This document shows, piece after piece, positions 19,533 to 57,072 of a stretch of DNA of 64,000 bases; within the stretch, counting starts at the first letter, position 1, and the number at the start of each line of letters is the position of its first letter. Source of the stretch: Candidatus Poribacteria bacterium (lineage in GTDB: Bacteria; Poribacteria; WGA-4E; WGA-3G); NCBI GenBank assembly GCA_028824125.1, contig JAPPES010000136.1:7007-71006 (forward strand), read 5' to 3'. The notes under the pieces were generated by a model. That model saw nothing but the letters and a program-made list of their open reading frames with translations, was not told where the DNA came from and searched no databases. The position numbers were made by a program, and so were the translations under genes.

Positions 19533-19617
19533 GCCGGAGTGGTGAAATTGGTAGACGCACTGGACTCAAAATCCAGCGGGCCCTAGGTCCATGTCGGTTC
19601 GAGTCCGACCTCCGGCA
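19533..19617 (+). tRNA. tRNA-Leu(CAA)
   Basis: Acceptor stem gccggag/ctccggc, D-loop ttggta, anticodon arm ctgga-ctCAAaa-tccag, long variable arm and ggttcga T-loop; CCA not encoded. Confidence 0.97.
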
Positions 19618-50937: not shown

Positions 50938-51211
50938 ACGACTTGTGCCAGTTAACTAAATGTTTTTGTTATTTTCACAGATATCAGGGATTGTTCTATA
51001 ACATATCGTCCCTACGGGACTAAAGATAGGGTATTCAACGTTTTTCTATAAACATATCGTCCCTACGGGACTAAAGATAGGGTATTCAACGTTTTTCTAT
51101 AAACATATCGTCCCTACGGGACTAAAGATCGTTCCAAATGTGAGAATTACTTATAATAATTCCTGCTTATGTGAAAAAATATATTATAAATAGTTATTTA
51201 GCACAACTCGT
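50938..51211 (+). mobile_element. MITE family B, copy 1, carrying 51-bp tandem REP-like repeats
   Basis: Imperfect 21-bp TIRs acgacttgtgccagttaacta and tagttatttagcacaactcgt; flanking direct repeat taattat at 50931-50937 and 51212-51218. Confidence 0.8.
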
Positions 51212-51242: not shown

Positions 51243-52958
51243 ATGAATCTTGATAAAAACCAAGAGAAAGCTGTTAATCATTTTGCGGGCCCTGCCATCG
51301 TTGTTGCGGGACCAGGGAGCGGGAAAACCAGAGTCGTAACAGAACGTATTCTCAGTCTCATTCAAACCCACAATATCCCTCCTTCTAAAATCCTCGCCAT
51401 AGCATTCAATAGAAAAGCGGTTGAAGAGATGGAAAATCGGATTGTTGCAGGGCTAAAGTCAAAAGGCACTTTACCTGTCATCCGTACACTCCACGCCTTT
51501 GGGAAAGATATTGTGACCGCGAACCATAGGCATGCGGGATTTGAACATCATCCCGAAATTTGGTCAGGGGAGATAGACAAAATCATTGCACAAGAAAGGG
51601 GACAGATTGATCAGGCAGCCTCATCCACAACTGTTTCCATCTATAAAATTGAAAATAAACTGACAGGCAAGTGTTATATAGGGCAGTCCACAAACCCGGA
51701 ACGGCGCAGACGTGAACATTTTGACCACTCGTCAAATGATCGACTACGTCAAGCCATTCGTGCAGAAGGAGAAACGCAGTTTGTCTTTAAAGTGTTGGAA
51801 CAGGTTGGAGGAAGAGAGGCAAACGGACGCGAAGCATATTGGATTAGACATCACAGAAACTGTGGCGAAGTGTTCAACCGCGCAGACCCAATGCGCGAAC
51901 AATTTAGCAATCAAGTTATGCTCGAGATGTTCTGCCAACATTTTAACATTCAATACACGGATCATTTGGATAGAGACCCCGATTTTGAAAATCTTCGTGA
52001 CCGTTTCTACGATATAAAAGATATAGTGATGCGTGCAAAACGACAAGTTGAAACCGGACTCTTTGATCCTAATTCGTTGAAAGACCCTGTTGCGCGTGAA
52101 TTCGCAAAGAAATATGAAGACCAAAAATCAACCGCGAATGCTGTTGATTTTGAAGATATGATTATCTACGCAGCACATTTATTAGAGACCCGCTCAGATA
52201 TCCGGCAAAAATACATAGACAGATACCCTTATGTGCTTGTTGATGAGTTCCAAGATATTGCCCCAATTGACTATCGACTTATTTCTCAACTGTCCGAAAA
52301 TCTATTTGCTGTAGGAGACGATGACCAGGCTATTTATAGCTTTCGGGGCGGTGATTCCCAGATTATGCAGAAATTCTCTAACCGATCAGATGTAAAAAAA
52401 TATGAGATTACGCGCAATTATCGTTCTACGTCAACAATTGTGGAGCATGCAAGAGCCATTATTGAACGAAACAAACCTCGGATTCGGAAAAACCTACGTT
52501 CTCATAATCCGATAAAAAATGAAATAGACATCATAGAGACGACACCTGAAACCATCAAAAAACATCTTCTACAAGAATTATCCGATAATATTGAGACAGC
52601 TATCCTTGTGAGAACTAATTATGAGATTGATCGAATTGAGGAGGTCCTTTCAAGTGAATCTTTATCTTTTCCGGTAGAGGTGACGACAATACATAAAGCA
52701 AAAGGACAGGAATGGGAGAGAGTAATTCTTATTCATAATACGTTGGATCGGAGGTTTCCCCGCAAGGATACCATACTTGAAGAAGAACGGCGCGTCTTTT
52801 ATGTGGCAATGACGCGGGCAAAGGGGCAGTTGGTTGTTCTCGGTGGGACGTGCCAATTTGTGCCGGAGTTTAAGAACATTCCTAAGAATATAGGGTATTA
52901 TTATCGGCAGTTTGCGTATTGGCGCGCAAGAAGGAAACTGAAAAAACTTGAGACTTGA
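51243..52958 (+). CDS. UvrD-like SF1 helicase with an inserted GIY-YIG nuclease domain
   Basis: AGPGSGKT, VDEFQD, VGDDDQAIY.FRG, NYRS, TIHKAKG.EW and EERR.FYVA.TRA; insert SIYKI...CYIGQSTNPERR..EH...E...FN. The track start at 51171 lies inside the MITE. Confidence 0.9.
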   Translation: MNLDKNQEKAVNHFAGPAIVVAGPGSGKTRVVTERILSLIQTHNIPPSKILAIAFNRKAVEEMENRIVAGLKSKGTLPVIRTLHAFGKDIVTANHRHAGFEHHPEIWSGEIDKIIAQERGQIDQAASSTTVSIYKIENKLTGKCYIGQSTNPERRRREHFDHSSNDRLRQAIRAEGETQFVFKVLEQVGGREANGREAYWIRHHRNCGEVFNRADPMREQFSNQVMLEMFCQHFNIQYTDHLDRDPDFENLRDRFYDIKDIVMRAKRQVETGLFDPNSLKDPVAREFAKKYEDQKSTANAVDFEDMIIYAAHLLETRSDIRQKYIDRYPYVLVDEFQDIAPIDYRLISQLSENLFAVGDDDQAIYSFRGGDSQIMQKFSNRSDVKKYEITRNYRSTSTIVEHARAIIERNKPRIRKNLRSHNPIKNEIDIIETTPETIKKHLLQELSDNIETAILVRTNYEIDRIEEVLSSESLSFPVEVTTIHKAKGQEWERVILIHNTLDRRFPRKDTILEEERRVFYVAMTRAKGQLVVLGGTCQFVPEFKNIPKNIGYYYRQFAYWRARRKLKKLET

Positions 52959-53055
52959 ATTAGGGATTGTGGTATAATCGCTATTTATGTGTCTATCTTG
53001 GAATTCCATATCTAACTAATTCCTATTTATGCTTTAATATCTACGAGAATATTCT

Positions 53056-56000
53056 GTGGAAGTTAAATTAGACGAACATCAATTGAAGGCAGTTAAACAC
53101 TTTGAAGGTCCTGCTCTTGTGGTAGCCGGACCTGGAAGTGGAAAAACTACTGTTATCATAGAGCGAATTTTGAATCTAATACATGAACATAACGTAGACC
53201 CCGCACAGATTCTTGCAATAGCTTTCACCAATGCTGCTGTAGATGAAATGAAAACAAGACTGAGTTGTGAAGCCGCTCTACCTAAAATCTGTACACTACA
53301 TGTTTTTGGAAAAGAACTAATTACAGATCATTATGACTTGTTAGGATTCAGCAAAGAACCTGAAACGTGGGGAGCAGAAGATATTAGGGAAAAAATATAT
53401 GAGGAAAGGTATTGGCTAAAAAGAGCAACCGATACAACACGCGTTGCAATCTATAAAATGGAGGGCAAAAGGACTCATCGATGTTATATCGGCCAGACTA
53501 CAGATCCAGAACGTCGCAAACAAGAACACCGCACGTATTCATCAAATCGAGGACTTCGTGAGGCACTACAGAGAGGCAATGAGGAATTTGAATTCGAAAT
53601 AATTAGAAAGCCAATGGGCAAAAATGCGGACTATGAAGAAACTGAAGAGATTAATAATCACAGAAACCGTGCTGCTGTTATTTTAGAAGAGGTACGAGAA
53701 GAAATAGTAAATGAAAATCCGGATATTGGCATAACTCTTTATAAAATTAAATCTAAGTCGACAGTCACTTGTTATTTTGGACTATCCACAGATCTAGAGC
53801 AGAGCAAAGAATTACACTTCACAGAGTCCCCAAATGATTCATTTCGTGAAGCAATTGAAAACGAAGAAATTGATATATCCTCATTTGAGGTTATGGCAGA
53901 AGGAATGTCCTGGGTAGACGCATCTACACACCTTGAAGGAGAAGTTAGGTCTTACAAAAAATGGGCAGTGTTTAACGACGAAGACCCATTACACGCACGA
54001 GATAGTACTCGACGACGAATTGAGGTATTCTGTAAATATTTTAATGTTCCCTACGATGAAGTCCTTGAACATACTCAGAAGTTTGAACATGAGATGCAAA
54101 AATTTGACAATCTGATAGATGACATTGAAAAACAGAAACGACAAGTAAAAAGTGGTAAGTTTCAACCTCATAAAATTGTGGATCCAATTCTTCGAGCATT
54201 TGCCACAAGGTATGAAGAAAGAAAGGATGAAGCCAATGCAATTGATTTATTTGATATGCTAATCTGTTCAGCAGATATGCTTGAGGAAAAACCTGAACTT
54301 CTAGACGGATATCGCGAAAAATATCGTTATGTATTTGTTGATGAATTTCAAGACATATCACCAACGGATTTTCGCTTGATAAAACTATTTCCAGATAACC
54401 TTTTTGCCGTAGGCGATGACGATCAGGCAATTTATGGATTCCGCGGCGGGGATTCCAACATTATGCAAAAGGACTTTGGCAACTGGGAAAATGTAGAAAA
54501 ATATGAAGTGACATGCAATTATCGTTCTACCTCAAGCATTGTTATGCATGCAAAGGCACTGATTAAACACAATAAGGCCCGAATCAGTAAAGATCTTCGT
54601 GCTGAAAAATTTTCATTGAATCAAGTAAAAATCTTGAATTCTACACAGAAGAATGTGAAAGAGGCATTGTTAAGCGAGATATCAAACATACTATCGAGTA
54701 ATTACCAAAATTTCGGAATCTTGGCTCGCAATTGGAAGGGTGAAATTAATGCGATACAAAAAATACTTGACTGCGACGAAATTAAGAAGCAAGGATTTGA
54801 TATTGAATGGGAAGGATTTGAAGATTCATCAGAAGATTTTGAAAACGAAGATGAAGAAAAAAGAAGGAAAATGTACCTACGTCATGGGTCAAAGGAAATA
54901 GAAATAATTAACATTCACAAAGCCAAAGGTAGGGAATGGGACAAAGTTATCCTTCTTGTGAATACAATGTATAATAGTTTTCCCGATGATAGAAATGATC
55001 TAGCTGAAGAAAGACGACTTTTCTACGTCGCGGTAACTCGTGCTAAACATGAATTACTCATTTTGGATGCAGGAAAATGTCAATTCACGTCTGAATTCCA
55101 GGATATACCACTTTCAGAACATAAACAGCAATTGAAAAAAGCCCAAAGTGTTTTATTATCTGCATTTGGAAAGCGTTTGACTGATGCTAAAGAACAACTG
55201 ACTGATGCTGAAGAGCAATTACAAATAGCTTCTGAAATTTTACCAACGGCATTAATGTCACAACGCGAAAGACTGATAGAATCGTCAGCAAAAGCTATTC
55301 GTAAGCAATACAAAATTGAACTTGAACATAGACGAAATGCTATCAATCGAACCGAGAGTACTACGAAAAAAATAAAAACAAACCTGCCTCAGCAACTAAA
55401 GAAATCTGAAGAGAACTTCCTTCCAAAGTTAATTCCAGTATTGGATCAGTTGGAATCTGTAATTAAAAATGTTACAGAGACAATTGAGACGAATATTTTA
55501 TCCGATGAATTAGCAACATTCTGCGAAGATATTCTTTCCACACAAGAACAGTTCCTTGATCTTCTTAAAAACTATGGAATCAAACCATTTGAAACCATTG
55601 GGACATCACTTAATCTCCAGCTACATGAAGTTATTCAACCCGCTTTGTACTCGGATAAAGTGCCGCAAGGAAAAATTGTCAAAGAATTTCAACGTGGATA
55701 TCTATTGCATGATCAGGTGATTCAGAAAGCAAAAGTTGCAATTTCTAAAGGACCAAATCCTTGGACAACTGAGAGATTAGAGCAAGTTGTGGAAATATAT
55801 TTGGACCGCCTAATTTCTGCATTTCAAACAAAATATCAATTTACCAATTTTGAAAAGCCGCGTGTTATAGAAAAAATGGTAAAATATCTGTTGGAATTAG
55901 AGGATGAATCTATAAAGGAAATTGGTTTGTTTTCCTCAAAAAGTACTGCAGAGGCTATTGAGGTAAAACGCTATGCCGACTATTGTGCCGGCCCTGAGAA

Positions 56001-57072
56001 AATACACTTGTGTACCAGCGTGTTTCAAGACTTCTGGAATAAAATGTGGGAAATAATTATATCTGATATAGAAAAAGATAATAAACAGGCAGATGTACTT
56101 TTGAGTCAAGATTTTACACAGCCGGTAAGGTTCATAACATATTCAGGCATTCGAGACCTTACGAACATAAAAACATTTCAGGATCACATTGTAGGAATTG
56201 ATACACAAGGTTCAAAGGTAAATTTGGAAACACACACCATCCTGTTTGCGTTTCCCAAAGAGAACATGGATGTACTAAAACCGAATGTCAAAACAAGACG
56301 AGCTATTACAGATCAAAAATTGCAACCGGTCCAAAACATGTCTGAAAGGTTCCATGTTGCAGATGATAGTTTCAAGACAATTCTTATTAATCAGGACACA
56401 GGAGAAATTTGTAATCAAAAATCTGGTGTCCAACTTGTTACCCGATCTGGTCATGTTCTAAAGGGTTATCTTTGGGACTTCAACTTTAATTTCCTATTTA
56501 TGCAAATCAATGGGACTGATGTGGTTGTTTATCGGCATGGGTTATTAGAATTCAAATATTTGGATTGGGATGAAATTGTTAATGCCTACAAAAGCGGAAT
56601 TCCCATTTATGGAAAGGTTTCTGAGGAAATTAAAGGCGGTCTGAAAATAAAATACGGATCCTTATATGGATTTCTTCCCGCATCAGAAATAGAATTAAGA
56701 TCAACTTACAAACTGGATTCATATATTGGAAAAGCATTTGAAATGAAAATAATTAAACTCAACAAACAGCGGAAAAATTTTGTTTTATCGCGACGTGCCT
56801 GGCTTAAGGAAAAAAGAAATGAGTTTTTTAAAACCCTTAAGATTGGACAACAGGTTACAGGCATTGTGAAAAACATTACAACTTTTGGTGCGTTTGTTGA
56901 TCTCGGGTACGTTGATGGATTAATTCACATAACGGAGTTAGCTTTGAAACGTATAGGTCACCCATCCGAAGTCATTTCAATTGGTGATGAAGTTGAAGTA
57001 AAAGTTATCAAATTTAATCGAGAAGATGGAAAGATATGGTTGAGTCTAAAACAAATGAAAAGCGCCCCTTAG
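53056..57072 (+). CDS. Multidomain UvrD-like helicase with two GIY-YIG inserts and GrpE-like, Hfq/Sm-like and S1 domains
   Basis: All SF1 motifs present; GrpE-like LIPVLDQLE...HE...QRGYLL...VI..AKV.IS; YRHGL Sm2-like motif; RpsA-like GIVKNITTFGAFVDLG.VDGLIHITEL. Confidence 0.85.
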   Translation: MEVKLDEHQLKAVKHFEGPALVVAGPGSGKTTVIIERILNLIHEHNVDPAQILAIAFTNAAVDEMKTRLSCEAALPKICTLHVFGKELITDHYDLLGFSKEPETWGAEDIREKIYEERYWLKRATDTTRVAIYKMEGKRTHRCYIGQTTDPERRKQEHRTYSSNRGLREALQRGNEEFEFEIIRKPMGKNADYEETEEINNHRNRAAVILEEVREEIVNENPDIGITLYKIKSKSTVTCYFGLSTDLEQSKELHFTESPNDSFREAIENEEIDISSFEVMAEGMSWVDASTHLEGEVRSYKKWAVFNDEDPLHARDSTRRRIEVFCKYFNVPYDEVLEHTQKFEHEMQKFDNLIDDIEKQKRQVKSGKFQPHKIVDPILRAFATRYEERKDEANAIDLFDMLICSADMLEEKPELLDGYREKYRYVFVDEFQDISPTDFRLIKLFPDNLFAVGDDDQAIYGFRGGDSNIMQKDFGNWENVEKYEVTCNYRSTSSIVMHAKALIKHNKARISKDLRAEKFSLNQVKILNSTQKNVKEALLSEISNILSSNYQNFGILARNWKGEINAIQKILDCDEIKKQGFDIEWEGFEDSSEDFENEDEEKRRKMYLRHGSKEIEIINIHKAKGREWDKVILLVNTMYNSFPDDRNDLAEERRLFYVAVTRAKHELLILDAGKCQFTSEFQDIPLSEHKQQLKKAQSVLLSAFGKRLTDAKEQLTDAEEQLQIASEILPTALMSQRERLIESSAKAIRKQYKIELEHRRNAINRTESTTKKIKTNLPQQLKKSEENFLPKLIPVLDQLESVIKNVTETIETNILSDELATFCEDILSTQEQFLDLLKNYGIKPFETIGTSLNLQLHEVIQPALYSDKVPQGKIVKEFQRGYLLHDQVIQKAKVAISKGPNPWTTERLEQVVEIYLDRLISAFQTKYQFTNFEKPRVIEKMVKYLLELEDESIKEIGLFSSKSTAEAIEVKRYADYCAGPEKIHLCTSVFQDFWNKMWEIIISDIEKDNKQADVLLSQDFTQPVRFITYSGIRDLTNIKTFQDHIVGIDTQGSKVNLETHTILFAFPKENMDVLKPNVKTRRAITDQKLQPVQNMSERFHVADDSFKTILINQDTGEICNQKSGVQLVTRSGHVLKGYLWDFNFNFLFMQINGTDVVVYRHGLLEFKYLDWDEIVNAYKSGIPIYGKVSEEIKGGLKIKYGSLYGFLPASEIELRSTYKLDSYIGKAFEMKIIKLNKQRKNFVLSRRAWLKEKRNEFFKTLKIGQQVTGIVKNITTFGAFVDLGYVDGLIHITELALKRIGHPSEVISIGDEVEVKVIKFNREDGKIWLSLKQMKSAP

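Follow-up and report, generated by a model that had tools for sequence, protein, structure and literature searches.

In Dna2 and in the defense proteins Nhi and Hna, a nuclease of the PD-(D/E)xK type is placed at one end of the motor. In Rep and UvrD, domain 2B is regulatory, and in Rep it is autoinhibitory. Complexes of UvrD with DNA showed that the tracked 3' strand exits the motor along domains 1A and 1B. A survey of GIY-YIG nucleases, whose domain tables might list further fusions, described Tlr8p of a eukaryotic mobile element, in which a helicase of superfamily 1 (SF1) and a GIY-YIG domain, which is C-terminal, are found in one polypeptide, and HsdR, a restriction subunit of superfamily 2 with a GIY-YIG domain inserted at about position 800 (Dunin-Horkawicz et al., 2006, PMC1564403). 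Neither of them carries a nuclease in 1B of a UvrD-type helicase, and the parts of the literature that were searched contained no UvrD-type helicase with a GIY-YIG domain in 1B. The subject of this study is a pair of genes, termed gene 1 and gene 2, in a stretch of 64,000 nucleotides of a Candidatus Poribacteria genome (hereafter the window). The list of open reading frames (ORFs) and their translations confirmed two ORFs on the same strand at positions 51243–57072 of the window. Gene 1 encodes a compact UvrD/Rep-type helicase of superfamily 1A (SF1A) that lacks domain 2B and carries a GIY-YIG domain within domain 1B, and gene 2 encodes a longer paralog whose identity to gene 1 was 40–46%. The genome is 5.59 Mb in size, consists of 162 contigs and is 94% complete; the window lies on its contig C139. 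The features of gene 1 are as follows.

51243..52958, + strand: gene 1, 571 amino acid residues, compact UvrD/Rep-type SF1A helicase without 2B and with GIY-YIG in domain 1B
51309..51329, + strand: Walker A (motif I) of gene 1, residues 47–53 of the GTG-start translation P0001, near-invariant across 61 aligned rows
51630..51887, + strand: GIY-YIG catalytic domain of gene 1, model residues 130–215, 36.6 bits with Pfam and a match to the I-TevI fold

The listed start of gene 1 was a GTG at 51171. Its relatives begin at the ATG at 51243, and upstream of this ATG the matches meet stop codons. Thus, the ATG at 51243 is regarded as the start. Gene 1 matched the Pfam families UvrD-helicase (PF00580; E 2.7e-62, 211.3 bits) and UvrD_C (PF13361; 88.4 bits). 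The corresponding matches of gene 2 were 188.7 bits (E 2.1e-55) and 66.9 bits, and all four scores were above the curated cut-offs. The columns of the helicase motifs were near-invariant in two alignments. These results bear out a preliminary description of the locus, made from the DNA letters, which had recognized tandem paralogous UvrD-like helicases with the helicase motifs kept in both. With the NCBIfam equivalog models of PcrA, UvrD and Rep, both proteins scored far under the cut-offs; the scores included 219.5 versus 911.2 bits for pcrA and 187.6 versus 1144.45 bits for uvrD. A canonical UvrD/PcrA-type frame of 747 amino acid residues is retained elsewhere in the same genome.

The best sequence match of gene 1 was UvrD of Deinococcus radiodurans (E 1.4e-39). 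Residues 27–134 of gene 1 (GTG numbering) aligned with residues 13–119 of this UvrD, and residues 306–444 aligned with residues 175–317. Because the alignment breaks between UvrD residues 119 and 175, about 115 additional residues are located inside domain 1B of gene 1, between the TxH motif and DEFQD, which is the position at which GIY-YIG inserts had been proposed. Residues 445–500 of gene 1 (56 residues) replace residues 318–563 of UvrD (246 residues). Thus, domain 2B is absent from gene 1, as the very short 2B region noted in the preliminary description had indicated. An AlphaFold2 model of gene 1, which was computed from an alignment of 61 sequences, had a predicted local distance difference test score (pLDDT) of 87.9 and a predicted template modeling score of 0.80. 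In this model, everything between motifs IV and V belonged to the 2A fold, and the layout of four subdomains with 2B was not found. The model matched Rep (1uaa) with a Z of 37.5 over 416 residues, and UvrD and PcrA occupied the top ranks in Foldseek.

The insert of gene 1 matched Pfam family GIY-YIG (PF01541) with 36.6 bits against a cut-off of 22.6. Its residues 130–215 superimposed on the catalytic domain of I-TevI (1ln0) with a Z of 12.9 and a root-mean-square deviation (rmsd) of 1.9 Å over 83 of 92 residues, at 29% identity. In the model, the insert is a domain of 86 residues that is in frame and integrated between the helices of 1B. The catalytic set was intact and consisted of Y134, Y145, R155, H159, E197, and N212 (ATG numbering). 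An alignment of 121 sequences comprised gene 1 and 120 homologs, whose identities to gene 1 were 70% or more. Each of the GIY-YIG residues, namely Tyr, Tyr-Ile-Gly, Arg, His, Glu, and Asn, was kept in at least 98% of these sequences. The insert possesses the Pfam score, the six residues and the beta-beta-alpha-alpha-beta-alpha fold of the GIY-YIG superfamily. Its match to the NCBIfam model of group I intron endonucleases (TIGR01453; E 1.1e-12, 48.4 bits) was under the cut-off of 56.05. The Pfam scan, read to E ≤ 0.1, revealed no Hint/intein family, no NUMOD-type DNA-binding tail and no RecB-type PD-(D/E)xK family in either protein. The single intact GIY-YIG copy and the missing intein motifs of the preliminary description were therefore confirmed, and the insert modeled as a GIY-YIG domain. 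Judged from these alignments, the predicted active sites of gene 1, which are the helicase motifs and the GIY-YIG Tyr, Tyr, Arg, His, Glu, and Asn, are conserved.

The distribution of gene 1 was surveyed at E ≤ 1e-60 in 81 other genomes of the same family, which represent five genera, and in 39 genomes of seven sister families. Together with the genome of the window (G000), the family count was 82. Gene 1 was found in 80 of the 81 other family genomes, with identities of 62–96%, and in none of the 39 genomes of the sister families. When the insert region alone was used as the query, 80 of the 81 family genomes were again detected, and merely four weak matches were found beyond the family, in frames of 128–339 amino acid residues. 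The best matches in five sister-family genomes were only PcrA-type frames of 739–756 amino acid residues (E ~1e-21 to 1e-24). The insert was present in all 80 gene 1 copies among the 81 other family genomes, and no insert-free allele was found. Named homologs of both proteins were from Candidatus Poribacteria, and a sponge assembly contributed one more.

For a tree, 21 gene 1 rows and 11 gene-2-type ('LONG') rows, which represent 20 of the fetched loci and the window, were combined with 5 compact helicases as the outgroup. All gene 1 rows formed one clade (Shimodaira–Hasegawa-like approximate likelihood ratio test, 99), whose topology mirrors the genera. The gene-2-type rows were outside this clade and formed two or three lineages that mix genera and have end branches 2–5 times longer. 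Because a long-branch outgroup row, P0263, was placed among the LONG rows, the branching order of the LONG lineages relative to the gene 1 clade is not fixed by the tree. The GC content of gene 1 (0.423) and its GC content at third codon positions (GC3; 0.381) were similar to those of its neighbors, the GC content of the window being 0.428. Gene 2 was an outlier, with a GC content of 0.365 and a GC3 of 0.29. The AT-richness that had been ascribed to the whole region hence applies to gene 2 and not to gene 1. Gene 1 is also part of a conserved order of genes, consisting of purL/purQ-like genes, gene 1 and a gene for an MFS transporter. The purL- and purQ-like genes upstream are kept in other genera, relative to which the upstream side of gene 1 in the window is rearranged. 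Within one Poribacteria family, gene 1 is a core gene that is single-copy, syntenic and inherited vertically.

The nearest helicases outside the gene 1/2 group (P0256, P0258, P0259, P0260, and others) were compact 2B-less cores in proteins of 2,000–6,500 amino acid residues. Their identities were 41–45% over about 285 residues, and one of these proteins contained a Trypsin_2 domain. No GIY-YIG domain was found by Pfam in the seven of these next relatives that were scanned. For detection in relatives, a custom hidden Markov model (HMM) was built from the gene 1 domain. Among the best 150 clusters of a representative library, this HMM identified the insert solely in proteins closely related to gene 1 or gene 2, although helicases that are more distant and have an unrelated GIY-YIG domain could rank lower and be missed. 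The nearest clusters in the ESM Atlas were compact helicases of a plain UvrD-like kind from Bacillota, Saccharimonadota, Actinomycetota, and phages, and none was listed with a GIY-YIG domain.

Similar to gene 1, gene 2 contains a helicase-nuclease core, which lacks 2B and has its GIY-YIG modules within 1B. Different from gene 1, however, its core carries two GIY-YIG copies and is followed by a long non-helicase part. The features of the core and of the spacer ahead of it are as follows.

53056..57072, + strand: gene 2 ('LONG' paralog), 1338 amino acid residues, consisting of helicase-nuclease core, long helix with GrpE, linker, Sm/Hfq-like part and two S1 domains
53434..53679, + strand: GIY-YIG copy 1 of gene 2, residues 127–208, catalytic residues intact, E 4.3e-25 with our own HMM
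53731..53988, + strand: GIY-YIG copy 2 of gene 2, residues 226–311, degenerate with Arg and Glu gone, E 2.1e-13 with our own HMM
52969..52977, + strand: extended -10-like sequence TGGTATAAT, within the 97-bp spacer ahead of gene 2

Copy 1 of gene 2 scored 19.0 bits with Pfam GIY-YIG, which was under the cut-off of 22.6, and it sits within a block that was 46% identical to gene 1. Residues were counted in relatives whose matches covered at least 60 HMM positions inside the first 420 residues. The Tyr, Tyr-Ile-Gly, Arg, His, and Glu of copy 1 were retained in 107–108 of 109 relatives, so that this copy is predicted to be catalytically intact. Copy 2 is homologous to the GIY-YIG domain of gene 1 and retains its scaffold: of 74 relatives, 67 have the Tyr, 62 the Gly, and 73 the Asn. 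Its Arg, however, was found in none and its Glu in only one of the 74 relatives, which is not the pattern of an active enzyme. Both the near-intact copy and the degenerate copy without Arg had been noted before; the loss of Glu had been missed. Among 120 gene-2-type proteins, 92 had two GIY-YIG modules, 11 had one, six had three, and 11 had none; some of the last 11 are fragments. The -10-like sequence that had been assigned to gene 2 was located at the above position, and it was not among the full -35/-10 promoters listed by the promoter scan. The scan found no terminator-like site on the + strand between the two genes.

Residues 691–1338 of gene 2 are non-helicase. Thus, the earlier account of gene 2 was correct for the anatomy of the helicase and its GIY-YIG copies and overlooked the GrpE, Sm/Hfq-like, and S1 modules, which are listed below.

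55126..55749, + strand: helix of ~120 residues and GrpE-like domain, residues 691–898, Pfam GrpE E 3.5e-23
55750..56061, + strand: helical linker, residues 899–1002, no Pfam match, pLDDT 46–63
56062..56553, + strand: two five-stranded barrels, the second Hfq-like, residues 1003–1166, pLDDT ~90
56563..57069, + strand: two S1 domains, residues 1170–1338, Pfam S1 E 6.4e-26, nearest to domains 2–3 of ribosomal protein S1

The model of the C-terminal half had a pLDDT of 77.2. The match to GrpE (PF01025) spanned residues 742–898, with 82.5 bits against a cut-off of 25.8. The fold matched that of Escherichia coli GrpE (1dkg_B) with a Z of 13.8 over 151 aligned residues; the rmsd of 13.9 Å is due to the long helix. 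The identities between this part and canonical GrpE frames of related genomes were 33–39%. A homodimer prediction with two copies of the GrpE module (residues 1–212 of alignment A2) scored 0.02, the mark being 0.42, and is evidence neither way.

The barrel module of gene 2 itself had no Pfam match, including Hfq (PF17209). It was 43–47% identical to the C-termini of proteins of 248, 279, and 1243 amino acid residues in related genomes, and three relatives of the module matched Pfam Hfq with 28.2–40.1 bits against a cut-off of 27. A profile of 19 barrel modules aligned with Hfq 1kq1 over the whole Sm fold (E 2.1e-6), which was the best of the Hfq structures matched. The proteins of 248–279 residues (L019:5867-6706 and L020:6260-7006) are stand-alone proteins that end in this two-barrel module, and the protein of 1243 residues (L021:2617-6348), which also ends in it, is a sacsin-domain protein. 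No stand-alone copy of the module was found in the genome of the window at E ≤ 1e-15.

The S1 domains of gene 2 matched PF00575 with 91 bits in two stretches, above the cut-off, and matched 7a05 with a Z of 15.9. They aligned with positions 122–293 of the NCBIfam rpsA models. The identity of the S1 part to the rpsA frame of its own genome (G000:C78:15784-16299) was 61%, and the 101 family genomes searched, with G000 among them, all had rpsA frames that matched it with identities of 53–62%. These identities suggest that a fragment of rpsA was captured within the lineage. Separate canonical GrpE and rpsA genes are retained in the same genome. The S1 part of one relative has an ORF of its own, with 299 amino acid residues and three S1 stretches (L022:9681-10580), which overlaps the end of the main gene-2-type ORF.

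The C-terminal modules varied among 119 gene-2-type relatives, of which 98 had GrpE, 72 had S1, and 60 had Sm/Hfq, in many combinations. Some gene-2-type proteins bear TPR or FGE-sulfatase domains instead. From its sequence and its occurrence, gene 2 is best described as an accessory paralog with one apparently live and one apparently dead nuclease module and with captured GrpE, Hfq-like, and S1 modules. No fusion of a helicase with GrpE, Hfq, and S1 was described in the parts of the literature that were searched, which included portions of PMC1564403, PMC3384342, PMC10952713, bioRxiv 10.1101/2024.10.26.620412, PMC3444138, and PMC7641849.

Gene 2 was found in 13 of the 82 family genomes; among the 81 family genomes with gene 1, 68 had no gene-2-type paralog. 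In 11 of the 13 genomes, contiguity was shown, and gene 2 was on the same contig and strand and directly downstream of gene 1. In the genus of the window, gene 1 and the MFS gene were 60–115 bp apart in 11 genomes without gene 2 and 3.9–5.6 kb apart in four genomes that have it. The downstream neighbor of gene 1 in a second genus is an ORF of 641 amino acid residues, and the corresponding ORF of G049, with 656 residues, is DUF6785/DUF6784. Gene 2 was absent from two genomes of this genus, which had a gap of 63 bp, and was located exactly between the two neighbors in three others. Thus, gene 2 is a clean presence/absence polymorphism at the junction 3' of gene 1.

Ten neighboring ORFs were characterized: a TonB receptor, a rhodanese, a peptidase C26, a PorV-like protein, a TPR protein, an XhlA-like protein, an MFS transporter, an FGE-sulfatase, a PhyH, and one unknown. 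Gene 1 is located among metabolic and transport genes, and no defense neighbors were found within the window; two neighbors that were checked against PADLOC had no match. Just upstream of gene 1, at 50994–51129 of the window, a 51-bp unit is repeated 2.7 times, with a short GC-rich hairpin in each copy. The unit belongs to a set of dispersed repeats with 62 matches in the genome, frequently in inverted pairs, which resemble repetitive extragenic palindromic elements or miniature inverted-repeat transposable elements. Neither the surroundings of the two genes nor the long spacers that precede gene 1 in three relatives had an Rfam match, and a tRNA gene at 19533–19617 was the sole Rfam match in the window above the gathering score.

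Given these results, we favor, with somewhat better than even confidence, that gene 1 is a lineage-specific single-chain helicase-nuclease to which gene 2 was added as an optional accessory paralog, the two not being an obligate pair. A compact UvrD/Rep-type SF1A motor would have lost 2B and gained a catalytic domain of the I-TevI type in 1B, minus its DNA-binding tail. ATP-driven translocation in the 3'-5' direction would deliver the strand passing 1B to the single GIY-YIG site, and the enzyme would therefore unwind and nick as one unit. Since the tracked 3' strand exits along 1A/1B, the strand threaded by the motor could be nicked by a nuclease located in 1B. The loss of 2B also suggests that gene 1 might be a constitutively active monomeric motor. 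Unwinding and nicking as one unit would resemble RecBCD, AddAB, and AdnAB, with another nuclease in another placement. The most economical role of gene 1 would be chromosome maintenance, such as repair, recombination, or the processing of forks or R-loops, rather than that of a mobile defense gene. The substrate, whether DNA, RNA, or a hybrid, and the biological role are both inferred. Gene 2 would be an old optional tandem paralog whose nuclease module was duplicated, one copy staying live and the other dying, and which accreted host-derived modules, namely GrpE with its ~120-residue helix, an Sm/Hfq-like part and S1 domains 2–3. The C-terminal modules may dimerize gene 2 and may tether it to RNA, ribonucleoprotein, or DnaK; the long GrpE helix, in particular, could dimerize the protein and so pair two live sites. 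Gene 2 may function either in surveillance linked to RNA or R-loops or in defense.

Several observations weigh against this reading. The family genome G053, which is 96% complete, has no gene 1, so gene 1 is dispensable. None of the 121 sequences from which conservation was judged is less than 70% identical to the query. That gene 2 always adjoins gene 1 is compatible with functional coupling. Gene 1 matched the PADLOC profiles of GajB with an E of 3.2e-64. Moreover, in both sampled genomes of a third genus, the slot of gene 2, directly after gene 1, is occupied by an ABC ATPase similar to NsnB/AriA (PADLOC E 3e-44), and this arrangement resembles two-gene defense systems. Finally, the sequencing runs listed for the 5.8-kb stretch were DNA only, from sponge or marine metagenomes, with no RNA run among them. 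The position of the ATPase in the two genomes is given below; the slot in L016 also holds an ORF of 461 amino acid residues with an S1 domain.

L016:8302-9672 and L068:12449-13771: NsnB/AriA-like ATPase of the third genus, PADLOC coverage full-length in one of the two

Gene 2, alone or with gene 1, might instead be an anti-phage or anti-plasmid immune protein, in which the helicase-nuclease would be the effector and the variable C-terminus would serve in sensing or targeting. This reading is tentative, and we consider it rather unlikely. It is in line with the patchy occurrence of gene 2 (13/82 family genomes), with its long branches and genus-mixing lineages that are incongruent with the genus tree, with its low GC and GC3, with the modular C-termini, TPR and FGE-sulfatase variants included, and with the NsnB-like ATPase in the equivalent slot of a sister genus; compact UvrD-like helicases are also present in Gabija. 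However, the window lacks the context of a defense island. In PADLOC, both proteins matched only as generic helicases of the GajB/RTasHel type. The phage and plasmid collections yielded no related architecture. None of 180 phage records covered at least 80% of gene 1, and the two of 2167 plasmid records that did so were 23–26% identical over spans of 418–470 amino acid residues, which are too short to leave room for the insert. The architecture, which the preliminary description had not recognized, was thus uncatalogued in PADLOC beyond generic helicases, in the phage and plasmid collections, and in the literature searched. In addition, gene 2 was only found beside gene 1, and tandem duplication with differential loss fits its distribution as well as mobility does. 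The defense role proposed initially is still arguable for gene 2, which is patchy, fast-evolving, low in GC, and modular. Gene 1 is vertically inherited and has no defense neighbors in the window.

Gene 2 might also act on RNA or RNA:DNA hybrids in co-transcriptional or ribosome-associated surveillance and clear R-loops or stalled complexes. In this case, the S1 and Hfq-like modules would bind RNA, and the GrpE module would serve as a docking site for DnaK. The presence of three independent RNA or chaperone modules, an S1 part that corresponds to rpsA domains 2–3 and shares 61% identity with the rpsA of its own genome, and the occurrence of the RNA-polymerase-binding protein HelD among the structural matches of the gene 1 motor (Z 25.9) are consistent with such a function. 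GIY-YIG enzymes, however, are known as DNA endonucleases, and the modules vary among relatives. Binding of gene 2 to RNA and its contact with RNA polymerase or the ribosome are hypothetical, and this explanation of gene 2 appears unlikely.

The preliminary description regarded genes 1 and 2 as a heterodimeric machine that unwinds and cuts DNA, a reading that the results support only in part. An obligate heterodimer similar to AddAB or AdnAB is improbable, because gene 2 is missing from 68 of the 81 family genomes with gene 1, where the motifs of gene 1 are fully conserved; gene 1 must work alone or as a homo-oligomer there. The tandem arrangement on the same strand in all 11 genomes with contiguity shown and the lack of a terminator-like site between the genes would fit co-acting subunits, as would their paralogy and the degenerate nuclease copy, which are reminiscent of AddAB and AdnAB. 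The two genes, however, differ strongly in evolutionary rate and also in composition, and one relative has an intact gene 1 but a gene 2 that is split over three frames. The split N-terminus of this gene-2-type protein (G035:C1:4355467-4356464) may point to a pseudogene or to an error in the sequencing.

Among the host factors classically hijacked by phages are GrpE, Hfq, and ribosomal protein S1; for instance, replication of lambda requires GrpE, and Qbeta replicase uses S1 and Hfq. It is conceivable, with a quite low probability, that gene 2 is an immune sensor-effector on the principle of an integrated decoy, in which copies of GrpE, Hfq, and S1 are baits behind the helicase-nuclease. A phage protein that seizes a bait would then switch on or localize unwinding and cutting, and gene 1 would be the housekeeping ancestor of the gene 2 weapon. 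Last, the GIY-YIG inserts are almost certainly not selfish homing-endonuclease insertions without a role in the host protein, as, despite the homing-endonuclease class of their nearest relatives (TIGR01453 and I-TevI) and a weak SegE_GIY-YIG match in one relative, the insert is present in all 80 gene 1 copies found in the other family genomes, keeps its catalytic residues across five genera, showed no Hint/intein or NUMOD-type parts in the Pfam scan, and is modeled as structurally integrated in 1B.

If the single-chain helicase-nuclease reading holds, gene 1 would be a natural example of a nuclease from a selfish element that was domesticated as a host enzyme, in which the catalytic domain of a homing endonuclease inside 1B of a 2B-less UvrD-type motor ended up as a core gene throughout a family of sponge-associated bacteria. 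With 571 amino acid residues, it is a compact candidate for an ATP-driven nicking translocase. Gene 2 seems to display a stepwise neo-functionalization, in which the nuclease was duplicated, one copy lost its catalytic function, and GrpE, Hfq-like, and S1 modules were captured from the host. If gene 2 were a defense protein, its fused host-factor modules would be a novel type of sensor.

Compared with the known systems, genes 1 and 2 share with UvrD, PcrA, and Rep the RecA-like motor of 1A and 2A and all helicase motifs. Different from these helicases, gene 1 has no 2B, has a GIY-YIG domain in 1B, and lacks the C-terminal Tudor-like tail. The insert of gene 1 has the fold and the catalytic residues of I-TevI in common; unlike I-TevI, it has neither linker nor DNA-binding domain, is embedded in a helicase, is inherited vertically, and is not in an intron or intein. 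Compact UvrD-like helicases similar to gene 1 also include GajB of Gabija, whose structures matched with a Z of 18.4. GajB, however, has no nuclease insert, and its PADLOC match was confined to the generic helicase regions. Moreover, GajB needs GajA, and none of the ten neighboring ORFs contained the AAA_15/21 or TOPRIM families of a GajA-type partner. GrpE, Hfq, and S1 are each related to a module of gene 2, which fuses all three behind a helicase-nuclease. Similar to AddAB, AdnAB, and RecBCD, which were structural matches with Z of 22–25, genes 1 and 2 combine an SF1 motor and a nuclease in one machine, and the subunits of AddAB and AdnAB are likewise paralogous and partly degenerate. The nuclease of those complexes, however, is a C-terminal RecB-type PD-(D/E)xK domain, whereas here it is a GIY-YIG domain in 1B, and gene 1 mostly occurs without its paralog. 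The architecture of genes 1 and 2 is thus a variant of the helicase-nuclease theme, and it is a real and well-defined feature.

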